In this document: positions 37,210 to 64,000 of the stretch, one piece after another | Position numbering within the stretch: position 1 is the stretch's first letter | Layout of the letters: each line of letters begins with the position of its first letter | Source: Cyanidioschyzon merolae | Taxonomy: Eukaryota | Assembly: GCA_000091205.1 (NCBI GenBank) | Contig: AP006484.2 | Strand: one strand, 5' to 3' | DNA: 64,000 bases | The notes under the pieces: generated by a model | What the model was told of the DNA's origin: nothing | Database searches by the model: none | The model's input: the letters and a program-made list of their open reading frames with translations, nothing else | Program-made: the position numbers and the translations under genes

Positions 37210-37685
37210 TCCGTACGCCCATATCATTGTACTTGGCCTATAGAAACTATGCATCTCCATAAAAGTCTGCATCCCAATCGCGAGACAGGAGCAGAGCATG
37301 CGCTTTGTACGCCCGTATCATTGTACTTGGCCTATAGAAACTATGCATCTCGATAAAAGTCTGCATCCCAATCGCGAGACAGGAGCAGAGCATGCGCTTT
37401 GTACGCCCGTATCATTGTACTTGGCCTATAGAAACTATGCATCTCGATAAAAGTCTGCATCCCAATCGCGAGACAGGAGCAGAGCATGCGCTTTGTACGC
37501 CCGTATCATTGTACTTGGCCTATAGAAACTATGCATCTCGATAAAAGTCTGCATCCCAATCGCGAGACAGGAGCAGAGCATGCGCTTTGTACGCCCGTAT
37601 CATTGTACTTGGCCTATAGAAACTATGCATCTCCATAAAAGTCTGCATCACAATCGCGAGACAGGAGCAGAGCAAACACTTCTGT
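37210..37685. repeat. Tandem array of 5 units of 94 bp
   Basis: Unit: gtacgcccgtatcattgtacttggcctatagaaactatgcatctcgataaaagtctgcatcccaatcgcgagacaggagcagagcatgcgcttt. Unit starts are at 37213, 37307, 37401, 37495 and 37589. There is no sequence similarity to the 92-bp satellite. The array lies about 330 bp upstream of the SAHH start codon. Confidence 0.95.
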
Positions 37686-48392: not shown

Positions 48393-49724
48393 ATGAAGCA
48401 GACTGAGCCCATGGAAACTGAGACGCAGTCAGAAACGCCTACAGCACCAAGTTCACGTGAGTCCGTTTCTGAGCAGAGCGGGGCGGTGTCGGCCGAGTCA
48501 CGGAAGGTGTTGCCTCGGATCGCAAGTGCGGGCAATGAGCTCTATCGCGCAGCGGCGCCTGGTGTGCCATCCGCGGTGACTGCTTCGTATTCTGACTTTA
48601 TTGCACAACAGCAGCATTATCAGCAGCAACAGAGAAGTTTAAGCGGCAGTGGTGGCAGCGGTCTTCGTCATAGCTTTTCGTGGGGTTCGTTCGTAGCGGC
48701 ACCACCGTTCGCCGTCGGGTATGGAAGCGGTATCGGAGGCAGCGTCCCTAACCTGAGCTCTGGGGCTGCCCCGTTGGGTGCCGCAGAGATTCTCGCACAA
48801 AACGCATACCTCCACTCGGAACTAAACCGGGCGCAGTCGGAAATACAGGCACTACGGAATCGTATTTACGAGCTGGAGATGCACCTGGGGGTTGCCAGCT
48901 GTGGCGTCCGTTCCCCGACTGAAAGAGCATCAACACCTCCAGCTCCGGCGAGCGCTGGTCAGGGCAAGGCGCCAGGCAGCAGCACTGCGGTCGCTTTGGG
49001 CTCTGGGCCAGTGCTGACTGCGCCGCCGCCCTTGCACGTAGCAACTGCAGTTCCGTTTGGAGGATCAGCTGCGATACCGGCTTCTGGTGTTGGCGCGCTG
49101 TACTCTAACAATCGAGTGATGCCCTGCATGTCAATGCCGCATAGCTCGAGTCCACTGAATTTGCCAGCCTGGCGACCAGATCGGTTTTCGCCGTCTCCAC
49201 CACCCGCCCAGTTTGGCAGCGGCCTCAGCACCAGCGCTACTACTGCATCTGGGCGCGCGGCATCTGTGCCAAACCAACCGTTTTCCTCTGCTGGACCTGG
49301 TAGTAGTCATGCGCGGCCGGGGCTCGCCGCAAAGAGCATGCTCGCCCGACACGATTCTCTAGGTTCCATCAGCAAAGACAGCCATAACAGCCACGCGGAT
49401 GAATACGGAACTGGGGGTTACAGCAGCAGCAGTGGAAGCAGTCTTCGTATTGGAGAACGTAGACGATCTCAATCATCCTCGAAACGACGTGGAAGAGCCT
49501 CATCAGTGGGGTCGGCACCGGAGACCGGAACCCCGCAGCCACGGTACTGGACTCAGGAGGAACACCAACGTTTCCTGGAAGCTCTGGAAAAATTCGGAAC
49601 CCGGAACGTGAGAGCGATCAGCGAGTATGTTGGTACTCGAAACGCAACGCAGGTTCGCACCCATGCACAGAAGTACTTCTTGCGGCTCACTAGAGAGGCA
49701 GAGAGGAAAACCTCGCGACCATGA
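48393..49724 (+). CDS. MYB-like transcription factor (single SANT/MYB repeat, SHAQKYF class) with a long Ser/Ala/Gly-rich N-terminal region
   Basis: The C-terminus has RYWTQEEHQRFLEALEKFGTRNVRAISEYVGTRNATQVRTHAQKYFLRL, which is a canonical SHAQKYF-type MYB repeat. Confidence 0.7.
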   Translation: MKQTEPMETETQSETPTAPSSRESVSEQSGAVSAESRKVLPRIASAGNELYRAAAPGVPSAVTASYSDFIAQQQHYQQQQRSLSGSGGSGLRHSFSWGSFVAAPPFAVGYGSGIGGSVPNLSSGAAPLGAAEILAQNAYLHSELNRAQSEIQALRNRIYELEMHLGVASCGVRSPTERASTPPAPASAGQGKAPGSSTAVALGSGPVLTAPPPLHVATAVPFGGSAAIPASGVGALYSNNRVMPCMSMPHSSSPLNLPAWRPDRFSPSPPPAQFGSGLSTSATTASGRAASVPNQPFSSAGPGSSHARPGLAAKSMLARHDSLGSISKDSHNSHADEYGTGGYSSSSGSSLRIGERRRSQSSSKRRGRASSVGSAPETGTPQPRYWTQEEHQRFLEALEKFGTRNVRAISEYVGTRNATQVRTHAQKYFLRLTREAERKTSRP

Positions 49725-49918
49725 CACCACCGCCTTTCGAAAGTCGAACGACGTCGCCGACGGTATAGCGTAGTGGCGGCAAACGGGCCTTAGACAAATC
49801 GTCTCCAACTGATGTGCAGACGCCTCCCCGTCTTTTTCGACCGGCCACGCACTACTGGTTCCCACTTTTTCTCATATAGTTCGATTTTGAGGGGTTGTCC
49901 TACAAAGGACCTTGTTGT

Positions 49919-50791
49919 CTACTCTGGAGGTCTTTTCTCCAGCACCGCACATCTCCTTATATTGATAGCGGCGTTAAAGTCTCTGTTAACAAATTCCATA
50001 CGTTTCTTGCCATCATTGGTTGTACTTACTAGTGCAAGTAGTCCTCGAACTTTTGCCATCCTTTCCATTTGCTCGTCTGTCAGCGGTCCGTACTTTGCGA
50101 TTTCCTCAGGGCTCCACTGGCACTTTTCCATCTCGACCCTCTGAAGTCTACACCCCAGTTCATGGTGCGTATACGATGTTCGGAACTCATCTACGGATAT
50201 TGTAACGAAACGTCGTGCACACTCTTTGTACACCCTCGTCGTTGGAGAAGACGTATTCTCTTTCTTGGGCGCCCAGCGCCCTGCCCCATACGCTACTACG
50301 AGCCTCTGACTCTCATCCTCCTTCAAGGCGACCAACTGATTGAAAAAGTTGGCAAACGCCCGCTGTTTCCCGCCGTATAGATTCATTCGCAAACGAGCCC
50401 ACCGGGGCTTGGTATCCTCCTCCCACAGCGCATCCCAATGAGCAACACGAATTTCCATGAATTTCCGAAAAGCTTCAAAGTCCGCTCCTCGGCTCGTCAC
50501 CTCGCTCAAAGCTCCCAGGTGATCCTTCATTCCTGAATTCCAAGTCTCGATTTTCTTCCTCGCATTCATCATTCCCAATTCTCGATAGTATCTCGCTCTC
50601 GAGAACCCCAAAAGACGCATGTCTTTCTGACGCAAGTTACCGTCAATGCCATCTTCCGCACGCTTTGGTGCTGCGATGGTTATGATATTCGTGTTCCCAG
50701 GGTCCGCGCCAACGACAAAGTCGTTATCCTGCACTTTCTGTGTCCGAGGGCCCGCCTTCTTGTTTTCTACATGCTTCGCCGCGCCAACCAT
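49919..50791 (-). CDS. RuvC-nuclease segment of a TnpB/Fanzor-like protein (C-terminal 290 aa)
   Basis: RuvC-I: VVGADPGNTNIITIAAP (compare GIDxG). The pre-zinc-finger motif is SVDEFRTSYTHHELGC (compare VDPRYTSQTC in TnpB). RuvC-III: FVNRDFNAAINIRR (compare DxNAAxNI). A CTGGAG-7nt-CTCCAG hairpin at 49924-49942 overlaps the last codons. The stop codon is TAG at 49919-49921. Confidence 0.75.
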   Translation of the reverse strand: MVGAAKHVENKKAGPRTQKVQDNDFVVGADPGNTNIITIAAPKRAEDGIDGNLRQKDMRLLGFSRARYYRELGMMNARKKIETWNSGMKDHLGALSEVTSRGADFEAFRKFMEIRVAHWDALWEEDTKPRWARLRMNLYGGKQRAFANFFNQLVALKEDESQRLVVAYGAGRWAPKKENTSSPTTRVYKECARRFVTISVDEFRTSYTHHELGCRLQRVEMEKCQWSPEEIAKYGPLTDEQMERMAKVRGLLALVSTTNDGKKRMEFVNRDFNAAINIRRCAVLEKRPPE

Positions 50792-51160
50792 AAAGGCGTT
50801 ATCCTACACCTCCTGCATCACAGGATCCGCCTCCTTCTCGTGTTCACCCTTGGTCACGTTAACGACAAAGTCGTTATCTTGCACTATCTGCTTCTCAGAA
50901 CGCGCCTTGTTGTTTTCTTCATGCTCAGACAGGCCAGCGACAAGGTTGTCATCCTCCACCTCCTGCATCGCAGGACCAGCCTCCTCCTTTTCTTCATCCT
51001 TCGTCACGTCAACGACAAGGTCGTTATCCGCACCTCCTGCGTCGCAGGATCCTCCTCTTTGTTTTCTTCATCCTTCGCCACGTCAAGGACGAGGTCATTA
51101 TCCTCCACTTCCTATGTCGCAGGACCAGCCTCCTCCTTTTCTTCATCCTTTGTCACGGGC
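50700..51160 (-). repeat. Internal tandem repeat inside the Fanzor-like gene: about 6 units of 75-78 bp encoding an acidic 25-26 aa module ([25 protein letters not shown]...)
   Basis: Repeats are visible on both strands. The plus-strand ORFs 50646-51248 and 50771-51205 show reiterated DKVVILHLL and TTKSLSCT strings. The minus-strand frames give [13 protein letters not shown](M/T)QEVEDDNLV units. Confidence 0.85.
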
Positions 51161-53832
51161 GCAGCCGAGGGCGCAACTGGCCGATCTCCCTTCAACGGCC
51201 GATAGTGTATACACAAGGCTACTCCATCGGTTTCAATCATCCCGCTGAACAACTTCTGCTTGCTCACTCTCAGAGGTTTGAAATCGAAGATGCTCTTCCT
51301 GTACGTCTCCCGGTTTTTACCAGAGAATTCCTCTGTGCTAACATTGGACTCTGGACTGATCTCCTTCATGATGCCATGAAGGACGCCGGAGTTGATAGTC
51401 ACAAAATGTGACTCGATCTTGCACATTGGAACCACGTTGAAGCGCTTACCCATTAGGACAGACTTCCGTCTCTCCCACTCTTCATTTGTCTCTTCACTCA
51501 GCTTCATCTCCGCTTCGCGTTCGAGTTCACGGTCCAAAAACACAAGATACCGCAGGGAGAGGCGATAGTATTTTTCCTTATCTATTTTCAACTCTGATAC
51601 CTTTTCTGTTGGATTCACCAGCCCCAAGACTGCACGGTGCTCTTGTATAGCCGCACGGGTTACAGAAGCTTCATTCGTGCTCCCTTTTGACGTCTACTTG
51701 TCGACAAATTCGACCTCACCTTGATGCTTGCGATCTCTCGTGATGCCATTGATCATCGCCCATATTCCTTTGCGAGAGATACCTGGGTAGAGTGCAACCG
51801 CGGCGCGTACTATGAAACATTCGAGGATCACTGTCAAATGGTTCTTCAGATTCGTGAGGTACTTCATCGCTCCGTATGTGTAAATACCCTGGCCACCCTT
51901 GTATCGATTACCCTCGAAGCGGAATTCCGCGAAGTTTTCGTGGAGGCCGTCCACTAGCACATTTTCCTTCCGCGCTTCCGCTGTACCAAAGATGAGGTAA
52001 CGAAAAAAGGTCTTTTCGAAAAACTCGTCCGGAATCTCGACCGTTTCCATGTGCGTCACGTCGCGATACATCTCCCTCGCTAAATGCATCAGTCCTGACG
52101 ACGCCTCTATAATACTCTTGGAGTCCGAATCGACACGGTTTCTGATAGCGTCTCGCAAATTTTCTCTGCAGGGATCCTTGACATGTCCAAGAAGAGAGGT
52201 ATTCACAACCATCTCGTTGTACAGTCGTCTTTCTTGCAGCCTTCGACGCAGGACCTTCCCCTTTTGGGTCTTCTTCTCTTCCTTTTCTCCTGGACTCGGC
52301 ACTGTTTTTTGTTTTTTCTGGCAGCCTGCGACCCTGGGCCTCCAGGATCGTCGACTTCCTTTTCATAACTTTTCTTTTCTAGTTTTTTTAAATGAACCCT
52401 CTGTGAACGCTTCTGTTATATACTGCGAAAAATCAATCGAATATTTTCACTTGAGGGTTGAAACACAATCGAACTAAAAACTATACTTGCCTATGAAATT
52501 AACGAAAATACAACTTTTACACGAGAGCTAGACGCTAAAGATCAAGATCACGTTTCCCTTCAACGGCGGCGCGCGCGTCGTGTCTCATATCTGCCCCAAC
52601 TCTCAGGTACGCTCATCGAGCGCGATGCATGCGCTGCGCGAGACGCCTCATCGATCGATGAAGGACACGTGTCCGACACCCCGCCTTGGCATATGCGTGT
52701 TTGTATCGCGCTGCAGCTGAAGTAAAGTATCGTAGATTGGAAACTCACGTAGAGTAATCTCTTGCTATAGGCTCTGTCGCTGGTGCCGAAGCTACTGCCC
52801 ATCGCAGTACCGCCTTGACATACATGGAGATGTAGGGGCCTGGCACGATACCCCTCGACGCTTCTATCAAAAGCGTAGCGTTCTCTGCGGCTTACGCTTG
52901 TCTGGATAAGGTACGCATCACTCTAGCCTTGAAGAGTTTCGTTAGTTTTATTGATCGTAAACAAACAAGGGACGGTAGGATTCCTGAACACGGACATACG
53001 TTTAATTCCTATGCTTGTTATGCATGCCGCACGGACGCTGGAATAAGGACCTGACCTGAATTTTGCTTCTATCCCGCGTCATGGGCTAGAACCGATGATA
53101 GTTCAAGTCATTTCCATGCTATCGTCGTTGTCCAAGTTATGATGCCCGCTACGTCCCCCGGATCCGGTGGTCTCGGCAGAGGCATACCACATATGTGGCG
53201 TCCATATCTGCCACGACGTTTGAGCCTTGCATCTCGCCTGGCACGATCGAGGCATCCGGCAATAGCACATATTGTGTTCTGATCTACTCTATAAGATTGG
53301 TTTCAAGAGCCTAACCCGTACATCGAGCCCGGAAGCGACATAGCCAACAACAAATGCCTTTGAAAAGAAAAACTTTTTCGCCGGCCGTGCAGAGTAGTGG
53401 CGAGTGACCCGCCCCAGACATGACGTGTCCAACTGACGTGCAGACGCTTCCAAAATAACGTAGCGCCGGAGGAAATTCCTTTACACCTCCTCTACGTTAT
53501 TCGTCAGTGAGCTGCTGCGACGTGTCTTCACGATAATTGTGATCTCTGAACTCAGCATCGCGGAGCGCTGACCGACCAGTACTGACGAGATTGTTGCTCG
53601 GAAAACAGCGAGTTTTGCCTAGTTTCTGAGAAATACTTTCAGCGCTTGTGCGGGTTGTGCTCAAAGTTGGACAGTCCAGGGGAGATTGAGGTCGGCATCA
53701 GCACCAATGGACGGGCGATCACACGTGCAGCAACGCAAAAGATGTTTTCGACTGGATATGCACACCTACGCGAAAGACTCTAGCCGGTGACGTGATCGAC
53801 AGCTTTGCACCGGAGAAAATCTAACCGAGAAA

Positions 53833-54891
53833 ATGCAAGCTCTTTTCGTGTCTGTCCCGTTGTACCAGGAAAGACACATTGTTCGCGCGCGCGCTGCAAT
53901 TCGAGCACCGTTCCCGCTGCGTACTGCACGTGATGGGTGCTTCGCAGCTGGACATTGTCAACATTGTCAGCATCCGCTGCCCTTTGTGGTGCAGCGTTCG
54001 CCTGTAGCGCGCCGGCATCGTATGCTGCATCTTCATATGGGCCCGAAACAGTCGCAGATCGCCGTGATCACTGGCGCGTCCTCTGGGGTCGGTCTGTATG
54101 CAGCTCGCGCTCTGATCAACAAGGGCAACTTGCACGTCGTCATCGCATGTCGTGACATCGACCGGGCGGAACGCGCAGCAAACAGCGTGAACCTTCTAAA
54201 GGACGCCTATACCGTGCTGCATTGTAGTCCGGCTGATTTTGCCTTTGTACTAAAGTTTGTGAGAGAGCTATCGAGTGTGGCGCGCATCGATCACCTAGAT
54301 ACCCTGATCTGCAATGCCGCAATCTGGCATCCGCGGGACAAGAAACCGCGTTTCACGGTGGACGGCATCGAGGAAACCATGCAGGTATGCCATCTGAGCC
54401 ATTTGCTTCTATGCCGGGAGCTGTTGCCGAAGCTGAAAATATCGCGCGGGCGCATTGTGTTTCTGACAACTCAGACCCATTCGACGAATTCGCTGCCGGG
54501 AAGGATCCCCCCGCGGGCTCGCCTCGGCGATTTGTCTGGTCTAGCCGCGGGGCTTGATCCGCAGACGACTGGCATGGTAGGCAGTGGTCCGTTTGAGCCC
54601 ACAAAAGCCTACAAAGTCGCCAAAGCCGCTAGCGTGTTGACAATGAAGGCGCTTAGTGATCGATACGGCCGCGATGGGGTGACCTCTGTGACGATTTTCC
54701 CGGGATGTGTCGCCGATAGCAACCTCTACCGCGAAAAGCTTGGCTGGTTCCGCTACGTATTCTTCCCGATTCTTCAGAAGTATATCACTCGGCAATACGT
54801 TCCGAATGATGAGGCCGGCCGCCGTATAGCCGAAGTGGCGACCCAGGGACAGTTCTCGGACTCGGGCTCGTATTATCAGTGGCGTGGCTAA
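53833..54891 (+). CDS. Light-dependent protochlorophyllide oxidoreductase (LPOR)-like short-chain dehydrogenase, with a roughly 75-aa basic N-terminal extension
   Basis: VITGASSGVGLYAARALINKGNLHVVIACRD...YTVLHCSPADFAFV...LDTLICNAAIW...NSLPGRIPPRARLGDLSGLAAGLD...KAYKVAKAASVLTMKALSDRY...VTIFPGCVADSNLYREKLGWFRYVFFPILQKYITRQYVPNDEAGRRIAEV...SGSYYQW. It is collinear with plant and cyanobacterial LPOR, including the LPOR-specific loop ([25 protein letters not shown]) and [24 protein letters not shown]...SGVYWSW. The ORF stops about 40 aa short of canonical LPOR (see findings). Confidence 0.7.
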   Translation: MQALFVSVPLYQERHIVRARAAIRAPFPLRTARDGCFAAGHCQHCQHPLPFVVQRSPVARRHRMLHLHMGPKQSQIAVITGASSGVGLYAARALINKGNLHVVIACRDIDRAERAANSVNLLKDAYTVLHCSPADFAFVLKFVRELSSVARIDHLDTLICNAAIWHPRDKKPRFTVDGIEETMQVCHLSHLLLCRELLPKLKISRGRIVFLTTQTHSTNSLPGRIPPRARLGDLSGLAAGLDPQTTGMVGSGPFEPTKAYKVAKAASVLTMKALSDRYGRDGVTSVTIFPGCVADSNLYREKLGWFRYVFFPILQKYITRQYVPNDEAGRRIAEVATQGQFSDSGSYYQWRG

Positions 54892-57831
54892 TATATGGAA
54901 GGTCGAGAGAAGACGAAACCGCAGGTTATTGAACCAACTTACGTAATCGACAAGGCAGATCAGCTTTACGAACTGAGTTTTGACGATATAGACCAGATGT
55001 TGCGGCGGCGTGGCCTCAAGTCGGATCTCTTGTTCCTGAATAAAGTGTGTTGGCTTCGAAGATGAGAGGCGCCTTTGGTGCGCACACCGCCGCTTCAAGG
55101 ACAGATGTGGGAGCAACGGTGACCAAGGAGGTGGCCTGCGGCAGTTCCGATCGGATATTGAACGAGTGAGATGGCGCTCCTCCTGATGTGAAGAGCGAAC
55201 AATGCTTCGCAAGTCATAATGCGTGATGCAATAGTGATTAATCTAGTGATAGCTATGAACTGCTACCCACTGAATGCACCAGAGAATGCTGAAAGCGGTC
55301 GTCATCGGAGTAGAGCGCGTTTGCTGCAACTGCAGAGAGCGCATTTGTCCTGGAATACAGAATAAAGTTTTCAGAATTGGGGATATCTATTGTTGGAGCT
55401 TATTTTGGGATTTGGTGCATAATATGACATGCATTTGGAGATCCTTCCCGGGCGTAGGACGGATGTATCGCACCAGAGTTTCCGGGGAAAGAAATGGCTG
55501 CATGGGTACAATGGAAAAAATGAGTGGCAACTTCCGAGTATTGACAGGTACTACGAGTTCCGGAGTAGTCTATTGTTTTGCACCAGTGCGTCTTAGCATC
55601 CGGACGCTGTTTCAGGATATATCAGTAGATTGCAAAAGCCGAACGACAGCAACCGAGCGTCGAGAAAGAAGGAGCTGGACTACGAAGGTGCCATGAAGTC
55701 CGTCGGCGCCCTCCCCGTGCGTACAGTGGAAGCAGTGCTGAAGAAGAGCAACGTGGGTCGTGCTTGAACACCGCCATTATGACGAGGAAGCAGGGTGCAC
55801 CATCTCTACAGATTAAAATGGATCGAGGCAGACTCTCCCGAGAAGGTAAATTGTTAAATAAAAGGATGTTTCAGGCATTCATCATCTACTGCCGGGGACA
55901 ACTTGCGAAGATCATGGTGCAAGAACGGACTGAGATTCTGTTTTCGTTCCACACAGAATACAGCAGGGCAAGCAGCTGAACCACTCAAGCAGTCTGCTGG
56001 TTAGATTGCTAATAATATTCCAGAGGCTGAATCGTACCATGAAGAAGCTCTTGATTCCCAAATGCGCCTTCACATGCGAGAAGCACCAAATAACCTCTGA
56101 TGAAGCGGTAGCAGCGTGCCATCGGACACAGATCAGTGTGAGAGGCCCAAGGAATGGATCATGGCTCCGCTCACTGACAGAGCCGGTGAGCGAACCTCGC
56201 GCGAGTACTTCGATAAAAGAGAACAAGGAATCCAGGGCGAGGTATCTGGGTAGAGAGTTCAAGAAAATAGGATGCGTTCCGGGGAACGTGCTTTATGAAA
56301 AGCACACTGCGAGACAAGTGCTGGCATAAATTCCTGAGCGAGGCGGAAATTCGAGATAGAATTGGTCTGTCGACTTGGTCGCTCTGTCTTGCTGTTAATT
56401 CGATAACTATGCGGAGACTTTCCTCGATCTTGCTGGGGAAACTGTTGGGTGTCCAAAGGTATATATGGTACCTCTAAATTGCCCGCTACTCGCCAAAATC
56501 GTTACGGAACGACGCCACCGGGAATATCATTTTTGATGGTACTAGGCACCGTCATGGAAAAGCTGTTGCATATTATGCGACTCCGACCAAGCAGTTACGA
56601 GTGATCCGATCTCGATTAACGAATCCGCAGACTTTCGGGCGTTTTCTTGGCTGCTGTCAAAAGACCAATTCAGACCAATGCCTTTCCGAAGTCCATATAA
56701 GTTCCCACTCCGAGATGCGAGACTAGGTATTGTTCTGTACCGAGAAACCACGGGGTAGGCGCGATACCGTGAGGCTGACACTCAAATAGATAGAGTTATT
56801 TGTAGCACCAGAAAAATGATTGCAGGTCGCAGATGTAAAAACAGACGCCACGGAGCGTTTGTTGGAAAACTTGATGAAACGTTATAAAGTCTCCGATTGG
56901 GCTAGCATCTTCCGCGGACCACCGGTCTGCGCGAGCCTTGAAAATGCTTGTTGGTGTCCGGCTTGCCAGAAGCGGTTGACACACACGTCTCCAAGCTTAG
57001 GCCGAACGAGGTTAGATGAAGAAAACACCTACGAATTCTCGCTTCGTAGGTTGAAGGTCGAAGCATGGGTACGCGTATATGCGTTCCACTTCGAACGATG
57101 ACGGCCTGTCCCTAAAGAGAGACCACTTCCCACGCGAGAAATATTTCTTAGTTTTCCTCGCAATAGAGACGCAGGAGCTCATTATTCGATGTTTTCTGTA
57201 TAAAATAAACACCAATGGTACAGAGGAAGACAAACCTCCCATGTACTCCGCCTGGCTGTCTCCACCAGAAAAGGACTGCTAAACACAAACAGTAAAACGG
57301 AATACTTCCACCACAATCGTCTTGCGAAAACTTAAGATAGATGAATCGCTTTAGGAATACATCTGCCTTTCAGGTGGAAGACGAACCTCAGCAACTGACA
57401 GTTCGTTATTCGCTATCCTTCTTACCCAGAGCCGTGACCTGCTGAACCCTGCTGACTCGCACTTGGAAGGAGCGGTACTCGGGAGTTACTCATTCGAATG
57501 AAATCCCACCAGCCCATATATAGTTTTTAGTACCTCTCCCAACTTGGATATTTCGGGCTATGGGCCCCGAATTCCCTACGTCCGTTGTGGTACAGTCTCG
57601 ACATCAACGTGAATTCTTCATCGCATCATGATGACCCCAATTCAAATTCCTCTGCAATGCGCGCGCGTTTCGCGTTTTTGGCGCTATCACGTTGTGCGTT
57701 GTTGTTCTGGCTTTCACAACACACGGCGGTTACGTTCGTGTTGGCCATAACGAAAAAACAATAGTGAAGATATATTCACGCAAGAAAGAACAAATATCCG
57801 TATTTATTGGACTGAGAGAGCGTCGAACGAG

Positions 57832-60618
57832 ATGTTTCGTGCTCGCTCTCTGGTACGTGCCCTGGGAGTAGCTGTTTGTCTATTGTTGGCGGCGACGTTT
57901 TCCGTGTCGGTTGTGGCTGCGTTGTCGCCTGTGAGTACGGTTAGCTGGACCTGGATAGGTGGAGAGACGGGTATCGATAATCCTGGTAATTATGGAACGC
58001 TGAACCAGACTTCAGCAGATAGTGTTCCAGGAGGCCGTTACTATTCTGCAGCCTGGGTCGGAAGTCCAAGCTTGGTATACTTGTTTTGCGGGGTTGGGTA
58101 TGGAAACCCATTTCCGAGCTACTTTAATGATCTATGGACCTTCAACTTGACCTCACATGAATGGACGTGGATTGGAGGCTCCTTAGACATCAACAATGTA
58201 GGAGTATATGGCACAGTCGGCACAGGCAGCCCAAATAGTATACCCGGCGGCCGTTACGGAAGTGCGTATTGGCAGACGGACGAGCAGCATTTCTGGTTGT
58301 TTGGTGGCTACGGCTTTGATGTGAACGGTAATGTGGGAGACCTGAACGACATGTGGCGGTACGATACTGAAACGGGAATCTGGACGTGGTTCAGTGGGAA
58401 TGATACTATTAACGCCGATCCAGTCTATGGACCGAAGGATATCTACAGTCAAATTTACAACCCCGGAGGCCGAGATAGCGCGGCATTCTGGCTGGGCGCG
58501 GATGGTCTTTTTTGGTTGTTTGGTGGTGAGAGAAATAATGGGCTGGATTATTTGTCAGATCTCTGGTCATTCAACCCTGTTACATTCGAATGGGCATACA
58601 GAGGCGGATCACAACTTGCTAACCAGCCTGGTAACTATAGTGCACCTGGCGTGGCGAGCAACTCAAATGCTCCAGGTGCGCGCGGCTTCTCGCATACGTG
58701 GACAGATTTTGAAGGAAATCTCTGGTTGTTCGGTGGCTATGGCTACGGAAACAGCACAGCACTAGGGCAAGGGGACTTGAATGATCTCTGGGTCTACAAT
58801 ATAAGTCAATCCGTATGGATTTTTATCGCAGGGAATACAACCATCTATGTACCTGGATCATATGGAAGTCTCGGTGATTTCTCGCCAACCAGTTACCCTG
58901 GTGCAAGAGACTCAGGCGTGAGTTTCGTAGATTCATTTGGTAATCTGCAACTGTTTGGCGGTGAAATATTCAACACTACGAATGGCAACTACGTCCTTTT
59001 GAACGATCTGTGGGTGTTCAATATCAAAATTGGTCAATGGGCGTGGATCAACGGAAGTTCAGCGGTTGATTCTTTAGCAGTATATGGAGTTTTGAACGAG
59101 ACCGGCTCGAGTGTTGTACCAGGCGGACGTGAAGGACCAGCCTTATGGAACACCAGTGGAACAGATCCGGTCATGTTTGGCGGATTTGGATACTCAAACA
59201 CTAGCGGACCTGGCTATCTCAATGATGTTTTCGCACTGAGTGAAACGTTCTTTACGCCTACCTCTACGCCTACGCCAACATCAACGCCAACTCCGACATC
59301 GACCGCAACATCCTCGGTAACCGCTTCATCTACGGCTACATCTACGATAACAGCAACCGTGACCTCGACGTTCACACTGACGCCAACGCCTACATCTACT
59401 CCCGTGTGCACCAATGAGATCTGCGGTTCCCCGGGACAGTACACGAACCAGGACGCTTGCGAGCAAGTCGGATGCTGCTTCAATCCCGAGACGAACGCGT
59501 GCACCCTGAAGAGCGTCTCAGCGGCCTGCAGCGCTGTTCCAGTGACGCAGCGCGTCCCCTGCGGCTGGAGCTACATCTACCCCGACGAGTGCACTGCGAT
59601 TCCGGGATGCTGCTGGCAGCCCACAGCGAACGGCATCCTCGCGCCCTGGTGCTACTACGACATCGACCATGCACCGCAGGCTTCTGTAGCGCTGCAGGAG
59701 GTGCAGGCACCGGTGCCCGTCTGCCCATCACCGGGAGCGCATCGCCAGCCGTGCGGCAACGCGGGTATCAACCAGTTTACGTGCTATGCCCAGGGCTGCT
59801 GCTACGACTCGCAGGCGCAGAACCAGTGGGTGCAGAACGGCAAGCAGCAGAGCGACTTTGCGTCGAACCCGTACTGCTTCCAGCCCGAGAAGACGTGCGC
59901 TGTGGGCGAGTTTGAGCGCCAGCCGTGCACGAACGCGGTGAATCAGAACCAGCAGCTGAACAATAACATCAACAATAACCAGTTTGTGCGTCTGCTGAAC
60001 ACGCTTCTGTACGGGGAGCAGCACGGGACGCAGCGCACGAGCTACTCGCCGCAGCAGTGTCTGGAGGCTGGTTGCTGCCTGGGGCTCGGTAACGAGTGCT
60101 TCCAGCCGATGACCGAGTACGTGTGCCAGACCTACGGGTACGTCTCGAACTCGCTGAGCGGCACGACCGGCAACGCGTCGAACTCGAGCTATATTGCTTG
60201 CGGCCCTGAGTGCTGCAACGCCGAGACGCAGAACTGTACGTACAACCCCTTCAGCAACAACAACAACCAGCAGCAGCAGCAGCAATTGCAACAACAGCAG
60301 CAACAACAGGTGCTGCTGCCGTCGTTCTGTGTGTGCAAGGACCCTACGAAGCAGTGCGGGACGTACCTGATCCCTTCGGATAACCTTGTGAACAAGGTGC
60401 GTTGCTGCCGCGCTGACGAGGAGTGCATCAACAACCAGTGTGTGGTGATTAGTCCAACACCGACTCCGAGTCCCGTGGCTGTGACAGCGACACCCTCTGC
60501 GACGGTGTCTGCGGCGGTGTCTGCGACGGTGTCTACGACAGCTTCTGCGGCAGTGTCTGCGACGATGTCTGCGAGAGCGTCAGCATCGGTTTCGGGTTCA
60601 GCTTCAGTGTCTGCTTGA
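57832..60618 (+). CDS. Secreted multidomain protein: signal peptide, Kelch/galactose-oxidase-type beta-propeller, Thr/Pro-rich mucin-like linker, four trefoil(P-domain)-like six-cysteine modules, poly-Q/N tract, and an Ala/Ser/Val-rich tail
   Basis: The N-terminus is MFRARSLVRALGVAVCLLLAATFSVSVVAA. Kelch blades carry reiterated W-x-W-I/F-GG and GG-x(n)-NDLW-x-(Y/F) motifs (WTWIGGE, WLFGGYG, NDMWRYD, WLFGGE, NDLWVYN, ...). The linker is TPTSTPTPTSTPTPTSTATSS.... One cysteine module, C-x8-R-x2-CG-x8-C-x4-GCCW-x10-WCY (CSAVPVTQRVPCGWSYIYPDECTAIPGCCWQPTANGILAPWCYY), fits the trefoil consensus. Three further similar modules follow. Confidence 0.65.
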   Translation: MFRARSLVRALGVAVCLLLAATFSVSVVAALSPVSTVSWTWIGGETGIDNPGNYGTLNQTSADSVPGGRYYSAAWVGSPSLVYLFCGVGYGNPFPSYFNDLWTFNLTSHEWTWIGGSLDINNVGVYGTVGTGSPNSIPGGRYGSAYWQTDEQHFWLFGGYGFDVNGNVGDLNDMWRYDTETGIWTWFSGNDTINADPVYGPKDIYSQIYNPGGRDSAAFWLGADGLFWLFGGERNNGLDYLSDLWSFNPVTFEWAYRGGSQLANQPGNYSAPGVASNSNAPGARGFSHTWTDFEGNLWLFGGYGYGNSTALGQGDLNDLWVYNISQSVWIFIAGNTTIYVPGSYGSLGDFSPTSYPGARDSGVSFVDSFGNLQLFGGEIFNTTNGNYVLLNDLWVFNIKIGQWAWINGSSAVDSLAVYGVLNETGSSVVPGGREGPALWNTSGTDPVMFGGFGYSNTSGPGYLNDVFALSETFFTPTSTPTPTSTPTPTSTATSSVTASSTATSTITATVTSTFTLTPTPTSTPVCTNEICGSPGQYTNQDACEQVGCCFNPETNACTLKSVSAACSAVPVTQRVPCGWSYIYPDECTAIPGCCWQPTANGILAPWCYYDIDHAPQASVALQEVQAPVPVCPSPGAHRQPCGNAGINQFTCYAQGCCYDSQAQNQWVQNGKQQSDFASNPYCFQPEKTCAVGEFERQPCTNAVNQNQQLNNNINNNQFVRLLNTLLYGEQHGTQRTSYSPQQCLEAGCCLGLGNECFQPMTEYVCQTYGYVSNSLSGTTGNASNSSYIACGPECCNAETQNCTYNPFSNNNNQQQQQQLQQQQQQQVLLPSFCVCKDPTKQCGTYLIPSDNLVNKVRCCRADEECINNQCVVISPTPTPSPVAVTATPSATVSAAVSATVSTTASAAVSATMSARASASVSGSASVSA

Positions 60619-63700: not shown

Positions 63701-64000
63701 TAACGGCAAAGGCGCAAGTAAGCTAGAGCTTTGTTTGCGGGCTCGCTACGAAATTTAGGGTCGCGTACAAACAAAGGTAAGCGTTGATTCCAAGTGACCA
63801 CTGTTGCCTATCGAATACAGCTCCAAAGTAACTGGATTGCAAGAATGCGCTAACAACTAACAAAAAATAAACCCAGAAAAGAAAAACATCGAGAAAGCAA
63901 CGCCAACGAGACTGCGGGACATTAAATTAATCAACGACAAGAATCAGCATCGCGACTTGTAGGGGTTGAAGGATATGGGGGGAATGTGGGGAATGGGGGG

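Follow-up and report, generated by a model that had tools for sequence, protein, structure and literature searches.

A probable LPOR pseudogene with an in-frame stop codon in a subtelomeric duplicate of Cyanidioschyzon merolae chromosome 2

The subtelomeric block at the right end of chromosome 2

The window, by which we mean the whole stretch of 64,000 nucleotides analyzed here, is the right end of Cyanidioschyzon merolae 10D chromosome 2. The SAHH and MYB proteins that it encodes are exactly BAM78951.1 and BAM78953.1, both assigned to chromosome 2 (457,013 bp), and the chromosome end is marked by the start of the telomere repeats at 63975..64000 on the plus strand (ATGGGGGG AATGTGGGG AATGGGGGG); AATGGGGGG is the telomere unit of C. 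merolae (Nozaki 2007). An LPOR-like ORF of 352 codons plus TAA, ending in ...SGSYYQWRG, occupies 53833..54891 on the plus strand, and this copy ends about 9.1 kb upstream of the telomere repeats. The preliminary description had taken an LPOR homologue as the mark of a plastid-bearing lineage, and rightly so, the organism being a red alga.

The LPOR-like ORF lies in a subtelomeric duplicated block (49700..60500) delimited by megablast of the window against 48 loci, in which many distinct environmental contigs match the region of about 49.7-60.5 kb at 80-97% identity, often at a contig end. Three collinear ORFs on the minus strand (49919-52302) belong to the same block, and the neighbor of the LPOR copy is a gene with kelch and trefoil domains (the "T" gene; 57832..60618, plus strand), recognized by the Pfam kelch families and Trefoil PF00088. 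One of the minus-strand ORFs (49919-50791) had been suspected to be TnpB/Fanzor-like on account of a motif (NRDFNAAINIRR); sequence searches of Pfam, NCBIfam and PDB gave this candidate no support. Rfam and tRNA scans of the window returned no matches.

Blocks of this kind are known. Subtelomeric elements homologous to one another, as long as 20 kb and carrying P (LPOR) and T (trefoil) genes, are described for C. merolae in Nozaki et al. 2007, where the chromosome end lacking homology to the other ends is 2L, not 2R, and the right ends of chromosomes 7 and 14 are reported to bear P-containing elements; Cho et al. 2023 name K+T (kelch plus trefoil) genes as the most prevalent subtelomeric duplicates of Cyanidiales. 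The window block resembles these published elements in its adjacency to AATGGGGGG, its many homologous loci and its pairing of LPOR with kelch-trefoil, and no essential difference separates it from them. The consulted text of Nozaki 2007 and Cho 2023 gives the gene content of the elements and does not specify disabled P copies.

The LPOR-like gene and the sequence beyond its stop codon

The ORF product is an LPOR homologue by several measures. The SDR Rossmann core is present, with GASSGVG at residues 81-87 and a Pfam adh_short score of 76.1 bits against a cutoff of 26.6. The LPOR family model TIGR01289 scores 270.6 bits for the truncated product (residues 73-351) and 275.9 bits when the stop is read through, the next family reaching 72 bits. 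The top PDB matches are all LPORs, and their alignment is unbroken over residues 215-258, so taking in the LPOR-specific insertion ahead of the catalytic motif. The LPOR/SDR core begins at about codon 73, and codons 1-68 probably form a transit-peptide-like leader; in the model of the close relative P0001 the N-terminal 47 residues have pLDDT below 50. The window copy does not reach the TIGR01289 equivalog cutoff of 331.35 bits, a deficit that is in part lineage-wide because intact Cyanidiales LPORs (295-315 bits) fall below it too; a further shortfall of 35-40 bits, relative to the two intact C. merolae paralogues, is peculiar to this copy. Two elements of an LPOR are defective: the YKDxK motif is not intact, Tyr260 and Lys264 being kept and Asp262 replaced by Val, and the C-terminal strand and helix are predicted from a structural model to be incomplete in the ORF product.

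Past the TAA (codon 353; 54889..54891, plus strand) the same frame reads YMEGREKTKPQVIEPTYVIDKADQLYELSFDDIDQMLRRRGLKSDLLFLNKVCWLRR and closes with TGA at 55063-55065. This stretch (54892..55065, plus strand), codons 354-410 with the TGA, is an untranslated remnant of the LPOR C-terminus, recognized by its similarity to the intact LPOR BAM79708.1: its 57 codons match residues 354-400 of that protein with 40 of 47 identities (E=5e-26). The alignments to TIGR01289 and to solved LPOR structures cross the stop unbroken as far as query residue 382 (...LYELS), and KADQLYELS pairs with KARKVWEIS, KARRLWELS and KAQRMWDLS of LPORs from plants and cyanobacteria. The in-frame LPOR C-terminus behind ...SGSYYQWRG and the identity of KADQLYELS as its conserved segment, both claimed in the preliminary description, are thus borne out; the remnant was given there as reaching 55080 and ends at 55065, and the coincidental match entertained there for a shortened paralogue is excluded by the E value. 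That description had also held that orthologues ending at ...QWRG with no similarity beyond would count against its reading. Four relatives do end at ...QWRG (P0003, P0148, P0152 and P0153), but in the TAA-bearing contigs compared at the DNA level the similarity extends past the stop, so that this objection fails.

In DNA alignments the other copies mostly have AAA (Lys) at codon 353 and three have GAA; the proteins P0001, P0002, P0004-P0006, P0008, P0010, P0145 and P0146 have ...QWRGKYTEGR... there, or something close to it. The intact relatives are collinear with the window at this codon, with no indel, AAA standing there and TAA here, and on these alignments the difference is a single A-to-T change at a Lys codon. 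The proposal of a recent nonsense mutation therefore stands as to the nonsense and needs qualifying as to "recent", because the mutation is older than the split of strain 10D from environmental populations.

TAA and AAA differ by one base, subtelomeric repeats are difficult to assemble and earlier misassemblies have been reported (Nozaki 2007), all of which would favor an error of sequencing or assembly in the reference and a real gene with AAA. Against this, independent assemblies (metagenome contigs L001, L002, L011, L012, L020, L033 and L034) have the identical TAA within the same flanking haplotype, one TAA-bearing contig being 99.1% identical to the window over 3.3 kb. Since the TAA recurs in contigs from six independent metagenome datasets, sequencing error, which had been offered as an option, is excluded, and an erroneous reference is extremely improbable.

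That the TAA lies within an intron, or is a sense codon in this organism, is vanishingly improbable; the open downstream frame is the one point in favor of either idea. The intact paralogues are collinear across the position without extra sequence, by which this reading is already refuted at the level of the alignments, and no frame-keeping GT[AG]AGT...AG span crosses the stop, none of the 63 in-frame GT..AG spans having a canonical 5' splice site. C. merolae has only 27 introns (table in Cho et al. 2023). As for an altered code, three other long ORFs of the window end at TAA, and none of the long genes there contains it in frame.

The AlphaFold2 model of P0001 has a strand at 362-365 and a helix at 372-392, with block-mean pLDDT of 88-97. 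Their equivalents in the window are a beta-strand at codons 362-365 (54916-54927, plus strand) as well as the C-terminal alpha-helix at codons 372-392 (54946-55008, plus strand); judged from this model, the stop at codon 353 would cut both away, and both are still encoded in frame after the TAA. By structure-sequence alignment codon 353 corresponds to position R286 of the Thermosynechococcus elongatus LPOR, so the window stop equals a deletion of 37 residues from that 322-residue enzyme, between the engineered deletions of 44 and 21. T. elongatus LPOR lacking 51, 44 or 21 C-terminal residues showed no detectable Pchlide turnover (Schneidewind et al. 2019, PMC6761149), with poor expression or inactivity of the truncations on either side of the corresponding position (PMC6761149). 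The same C-terminal helix is lost in these constructs and in the window ORF, which suggests that the truncated product would be inactive. The comparison is between laboratory constructs of a cyanobacterial enzyme and a natural stop known from sequence, in a Cyanidiales protein that shares about 45% identity with cyanobacterial LPORs and whose tail is longer.

The stop might be bypassed, either by read-through of the TAA to give the full-length protein or by reinitiation to give the core and a 56-aa C-terminal peptide that assemble. Such a bypass would have 57 open codons to work on, and an ATG sits two codons after the stop (TAA TAT ATG), created by a lineage-private ACG-to-ATG change at 54896 that is linked to the TAA in every copy with this stop except L020. 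The TAA, however, works as an ordinary stop for other window genes, and the ATG is one among several neutral-looking replacements. The remnant (54892..55065) has 6 nonsynonymous and 2 synonymous private changes and a pairwise omega of at least 1; therefore nothing conserves the frame past the stop, and divergence is seen in the tail beyond codon 397. Eukaryotic ribosomes reinitiate inefficiently once they have translated a long ORF. We consider a bypass very unlikely.

Lineage-private changes and lost residues

Pairwise Nei-Gojobori dN/dS between copies is 0.2-0.45 in every comparison, whether truncated or intact copies are compared, and about 0.4 among TAA-bearing copies. Identity profiles show that the LPOR copies are mosaics, and for that reason the pairwise values were set aside in favor of counts of lineage-private changes; mosaic exchange with constrained copies would produce low pairwise dN/dS, and metagenome contigs of a multi-copy family may themselves be chimeric. 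In the mature domain the private derived changes are 12 nonsynonymous and 4 synonymous, which at a site ratio of 3.09 gives an omega of 0.97 (95% CI 0.29-4.1); with all regions pooled it is 0.90 (CI 0.39-2.3), the test resting on 16 to 30 substitutions with intervals that still allow an omega of about 0.3-0.4. The long-term omega of a functional LPOR is 0.13. Omega for private changes is about 1 both upstream and downstream of the stop.

The residues affected include some that are hardly ever replaced. Judged against a reference set of 112 LPORs, the window copy departs at 14 of 78 sites with at least 95% conservation, intact Cyanidiales LPORs at 6-8; D262V, F299Y, N267S and D132S are among its departures. 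In the cofactor-binding half (54130..54231, plus strand) the private-change count identified W100L (54131), I102V, M104I, D132S (54226-54228) and L133P (54230), at positions where the reference LPORs have W100 in 90/112, M104 in 108/112 and D132 in 109/112. A second group at conserved sites (54631..54741, plus strand) consists of N267S (54632), A287T, F299Y (54728) and R303L (54740), with N267 in 111/112 and F299 in 112/112 of the references. F299Y and R303L occur in every TAA-bearing copy covering the sites except L020, and on that account are regarded as linked to the stop.

The catalytic YxxxK motif carries D262V (codon 262, 54616..54618, plus strand; GTC for GAC, turning YKDAK into YKVAK), at a position where all of the reference LPORs (112/112) have Asp. 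Private to the 10D copy, the substitution (at 54617) is missing from the near-identical environmental copies L011, L033 and L034; D262V arose later than the stop.

A genuinely shortened functional paralogue would be a 352-aa protein kept by selection for a helix-independent role such as pigment/NADPH binding or regulation. In its favor, at least four distinct protein variants, drawn from several environmental datasets, share this truncation, and the upstream ORF is without interruption, with the pairwise dN/dS among truncated copies noted above. Private changes giving an omega of about 1 on both sides of the stop point the other way, as do the invariant residues that have gone, including the Asp of YKDxK, one such loss postdating the stop. 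The behavior of the flanking T. elongatus truncations (PMC6761149), the low pairwise values to be expected of mosaic exchange, and sibling copies with assorted frameshifts and stops also weigh against a shortened paralogue, which we judge unlikely.

A probably decaying duplicate among few intact copies

The intact 10D LPORs BAM79708.1 (chromosome 7) and BAM81403.1 (chromosome 14) share about 90% protein identity with the window copy, and all three have a transit-peptide-like leader, the same length register and a location in subtelomeric homologous elements. Unlike them, the window copy has TAA at codon 353 and V, S, S and Y at D262, D132, N267 and F299. The annotated por genes are CMD190C, CMG217C and CMN338C on chromosomes 4, 7 and 14, with none on chromosome 2, and no deposited protein matching the window ORF was found when it was sought from three start codons. 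C. merolae is without the light-independent (dark) protochlorophyllide reductase, and because the dark enzyme is absent the expressed LPOR genes are the only protochlorophyllide reductases of the alga.

The ORF is very probably a non-processed LPOR pseudogene, or at the least a copy whose constraint is relaxed, in the subtelomeric duplicate at the right end of chromosome 2. The features of a duplicated pseudogene come together here: the high identity to BAM79708.1/BAM81403.1, duplicated flanks, the lesions TAA and D262V, and an omega near 1. Counting against a pseudogene are the 352 intact codons upstream of the stop, with GASSGVG and the catalytic Tyr and Lys kept, and a pairwise dN/dS among TAA-bearing copies that is not 1, an estimate confounded by mosaic sequence. 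An A-to-T change at Lys codon 353 created the TAA and cost the copy its beta-strand and C-terminal helix, and since then it has evolved with no protein-level constraint that can be detected, LPOR function being supplied, we propose, by intact 403-aa paralogues at other chromosome ends. The locus itself may be poorly expressed or silenced via its subtelomeric H3K27me3 context; H3K27me3 is found on 36 of 40 C. merolae chromosome ends, the four exceptions not including the 3' end of chromosome 2.

The wide distribution of the TAA haplotype, over several sequence backgrounds, could alternatively be due to retention. It is distinctly unlikely, in our estimation, that the haplotype is an old, widespread allele retained for some function and not by decay alone. 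If it were, the truncated core, perhaps with the 56-aa peptide from the linked ATG, may have a non-catalytic role, or the disabled copies may be a sequence reservoir from which gene conversion feeds the few expressed LPOR genes.

Among the 25 full-length copies (24 environmental and that of the window) only four are uninterrupted to codon 403, and the remaining ones are broken at many different positions by assorted frameshifts and stops; these environmental copies suggest a family of mostly decaying, mosaic members. Decaying subtelomeric families are familiar from yeast, from Plasmodium var genes and from trypanosome VSG pseudogene arrays, and the C. merolae family is like them in being multi-copy at chromosome ends, in a mosaicism that suggests ectopic exchange, and in having many disabled and few intact copies. 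It differs in encoding a housekeeping enzyme of chlorophyll synthesis and not a surface or contingency protein.

The window copy is an ordinary decaying duplicate in an already known subtelomeric repeat, and by itself it has little importance past annotation hygiene: the ORF should carry the label pseudogene and neither LPOR nor "short LPOR", and it is no evidence for an unusual genetic code or a novel enzyme form. The family to which it belongs is a compact natural case of subtelomeric gene birth, exchange and death.

Location of the window and its subtelomeric element

The DNA of the window is eukaryotic and intron-poor, with about 55% G+C. Its adenosylhomocysteinase and MYB-related protein (48393-49724) match BAM78951.1 and BAM78953.1 of Cyanidioschyzon merolae 10D exactly, both on a record of 457,013 bp, the length of chromosome 2 (Nozaki et al. 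2007, Table 1). The 3' end (63975-64000) reads ATGGGGGG AATGTGGGG AATGGGGGG, in which AATGGGGGG is the telomere unit of C. merolae (Nozaki et al. 2007). The window therefore represents chromosome 2's right end, and about 9 kb separate its copy of the light-dependent protochlorophyllide oxidoreductase (LPOR) gene from the telomere repeats. A 94-bp tandem repeat (37213-37674; 4.9 copies, 98% identity) is found some 350 bp upstream of the gene for adenosylhomocysteinase; its copy number varies among environmental contigs otherwise 99.2-99.7% identical. The syntenic environmental contig Ga0080006_1178247 (76,260 bp) carries a cut-off LPOR copy at each end (L026 and L027) in inverted orientation, reflecting either a second copy about 60 kb from the first or a fold-back of the assembly graph at the repeat.

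At most chromosome ends of C. merolae there are subtelomeric elements, up to 20 kb long and homologous to one another, with "T" (trefoil factor) and "P" (NADPH:protochlorophyllide oxidoreductase) among their genes; 2L, but not 2R, is listed with the ends that lack such homology (Nozaki et al. 2007). The window has the layout of the published element, the LPOR copy being followed by a kelch-trefoil gene (57832-60618), and many other loci match the block at about 49.7-60.5 kb with 80-97% identity. Subtelomeric duplications in Cyanidiales have been treated at length (Cho et al. 2023). The kelch-trefoil product has 928 aa, contains runs of Gln/Asn and linkers rich in Thr, Pro, Ala and Ser, and is a member of the family most prevalent among subtelomeric genes of Cyanidiales; exactly this product was not found in the protein collection, so the deposited annotation, if any, has other boundaries. 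Three collinear minus-strand ORFs of 290, 171 and 202 aa (49919-52302) lie inside the duplicated block, and a 75/150-bp tandem repeat (50710-51157) overlaps the junction of the 290-aa and 171-aa ORFs. The 290-aa product is identical in JGI metagenome contigs, labelled "hypothetical protein". The three ORFs had no family match in Pfam, NCBIfam or PDB, and a likeness of a C-terminal motif of the 290-aa ORF, NRDFNAAINIRR, to the RuvC motifs of TnpB/Fanzor was rejected, having no support from these databases.

Nature of the in-frame stop

The LPOR-like ORF (53833-54891, plus strand) encodes 352 residues ending in ...SGSYYQWRG before a TAA at 54889-54891, downstream of which the same frame has 57 open codons (YMEGREKTKPQVIEPTYVIDKADQLYELSFDDIDQMLRRRGLKSDLLFLNKVCWLRR) before it meets a TGA at 55063-55065. 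The read-through translation aligns with the LPOR profile model TIGR01289 across the stop without a break (275.9 bits, residues 73-382), as it does with plant and cyanobacterial LPORs of solved structure (residues 77-382), and KADQLYELS is the homologue of KARKVWEIS/KARRLWELS in known LPORs. These alignments confirm the preliminary description, which had placed a conserved C-terminal segment beyond an in-frame TAA. Its suggestion that the downstream match might be coincidental is not borne out, since the 57 codons match residues 354-400 of BAM79708.1 with 40 identities in 47 positions (E=5e-26).

A search of a large protein collection yielded close relatives, 397-418 aa long, whose alignments span 97-98% of the read-through query and which read ...SGSYYQWRGKYTEGREKTKPQVIEPTYEIDKADQLYELS... 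at the stop region; among them are BAM79708.1 (chromosome 7) and BAM81403.1 (chromosome 14), deposited LPORs of strain 10D, both of 403 aa. In the DNA alignments, with no indel, the TAA of the window faces AAA in the intact copies; the stop is a single-base nonsense mutation in an LPOR paralogue, the first of the readings offered earlier. A sequencing error, also considered then, is ruled out by the same TAA and flanking haplotype in L001, L002, L011, L012, L020, L033 and L034, environmental loci from six metagenome datasets (over 3.3 kb, L011 and the window share 99.1% identity). An intron over the TAA is ruled out by the collinearity of the intact copies at the site and the lack of an available canonical splice donor, and a reassigned TAA codon by the same collinearity and by three other long ORFs of the window that end in TAA.

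Positions 54889-54897 read TAA TAT ATG. The start codon two codons past the stop arises from an ACG-to-ATG change at 54896, private to the lineage, which accompanies the TAA in all TAA copies but L020. The ATG is probably coincidental, because the downstream frame bears no sign of constraint.

Effect of the truncation and constraint on the copy

In the 322-residue enzyme of T. elongatus the position of the stop is R286, which makes it equivalent to a 37-residue deletion of that LPOR. For the intact relative P0001, AlphaFold2 predicts a beta-strand at 362-365 and a 21-residue helix at 372-392 (mean pLDDT 85.8; block means of 88-97 over residues 350-400). T. elongatus LPOR lacking 51, 44 or 21 C-terminal residues had no detectable light-dependent Pchlide turnover in any variant, and the same authors cite activity loss in the pea enzyme when residues of this region are replaced by alanine (Schneidewind et al. 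2019). Because of these deletions, the 352-aa product, if made at all, would by analogy be expected to be inactive.

Pairwise dN/dS was 0.2-0.45 in every comparison among copies, but is uninformative here because the copies are mosaics; the identity of L012 to the window, for example, is 99-100% around the stop and at the 5' end and 89-90% in the middle, although metagenome contigs of a repeated family are possibly chimeric and such mosaicism could be partly an assembly artefact. Private substitutions alone were therefore counted, that is, bases of the window lineage absent from all copies outside the window/TAA haplotype group. The mature domain has 12 nonsynonymous and 4 synonymous private changes, which at a site ratio of 3.09 gives an omega of 0.97 (95% CI 0.29-4.1); a further 6 and 2, respectively, lie after the stop, and the pooled omega is 0.90 (CI 0.39-2.3), a small number of substitutions underlying these estimates. 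If omega were 0.2, at least 12 nonsynonymous changes in 16 would have P = 0.003. The reference omega, between an intact C. merolae-type copy and the Cyanidium caldarium orthologue, is 0.13, with dS near saturation.

Several replacements fall on sites invariant or nearly so among 112 reference LPORs: D262V inside YKDxK (Asp in 112/112), F299Y (Phe in 112/112), N267S (conserved in 111), D132S (in 109), M104I and W100L. The window copy departs from the consensus at 14 of the 78 sites of at least 95% conservation, as against 6-8 in intact Cyanidiales enzymes, and scores 35-40 bits under the two intact C. merolae paralogues with TIGR01289. D262V is unique to the 10D copy, nearly identical environmental copies lacking it, and so arose after the stop was in place. 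Several lines of evidence thus suggest that the truncated copy is no longer a working gene. That the widespread TAA haplotype is kept for some function, or as a donor for gene conversion, seems very improbable. Judged from its sequence, the feature appears to be an ordinary duplicated pseudogene in a subtelomeric element already described in 2007.

The LPOR gene family and its chromosomal setting

Strain 10D has three recorded por genes, CMD190C, CMG217C and CMN338C on chromosomes 4, 7 and 14, and no chlL, chlN or chlB on record in its plastid genome (Hunsperger et al. 2015). Chromosome 2 carries none of the three, and the window ORF product, tried with three possible start codons, has no equal among deposited proteins; the chromosome 2 copy is therefore an extra one, not represented as a protein. 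Only 4 of 25 full-length copies (24 from environmental contigs and the window's own) are uninterrupted to codon 403, the others ending at codons 352, 341, 331, 321, 320, 304, 106, 57, 51 and earlier, so the window copy is one member of a family consisting mostly of decaying copies. Three environmental loci (L014, L018 and L037) have another nonsense codon one codon past the window's TAA position (AAA TAA ACG GAT GGG GGA TAG), which shows that this short stretch was disabled more than once, independently, within the family; L014 and L018 also have an earlier in-frame stop.

Of the 78 strongly conserved sites, 6-8 deviate from the general consensus of LPORs even in the intact Cyanidiales LPORs P0145, P0146, P0005 and P0154, and intact Cyanidiales enzymes read YKDAKAAN for YKDSKVCN, with loss of the conserved Cys. 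Intact Cyanidiales LPORs, including the two C. merolae paralogues, score 295-315 bits with TIGR01289, under its bacterial-trained cutoff of 331; an annotation pipeline relying on this cutoff would miss the LPOR name for them.

H3K27me3 covers 36 of the 40 chromosome ends of C. merolae, the four without a terminal domain being the 3' ends of chromosomes 7, 14 and 16 and the 5' end of chromosome 3 (Mikulski 2017). Chromosome 2 is not excepted at its 3' end, which fits repression, as seen at the level of chromosome ends. Chromosome 7 (584,452 bp; BAM79708.1) and chromosome 14 (852,727 bp; BAM81403.1) carry intact genes, and P-containing "PH" elements are located at 7R and 14R (Nozaki 2007), where the H3K27me3 domain is absent. 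From these published descriptions, intact LPOR copies may therefore sit at the few unrepressed ends, and copies such as that of 2R in repressed ones.
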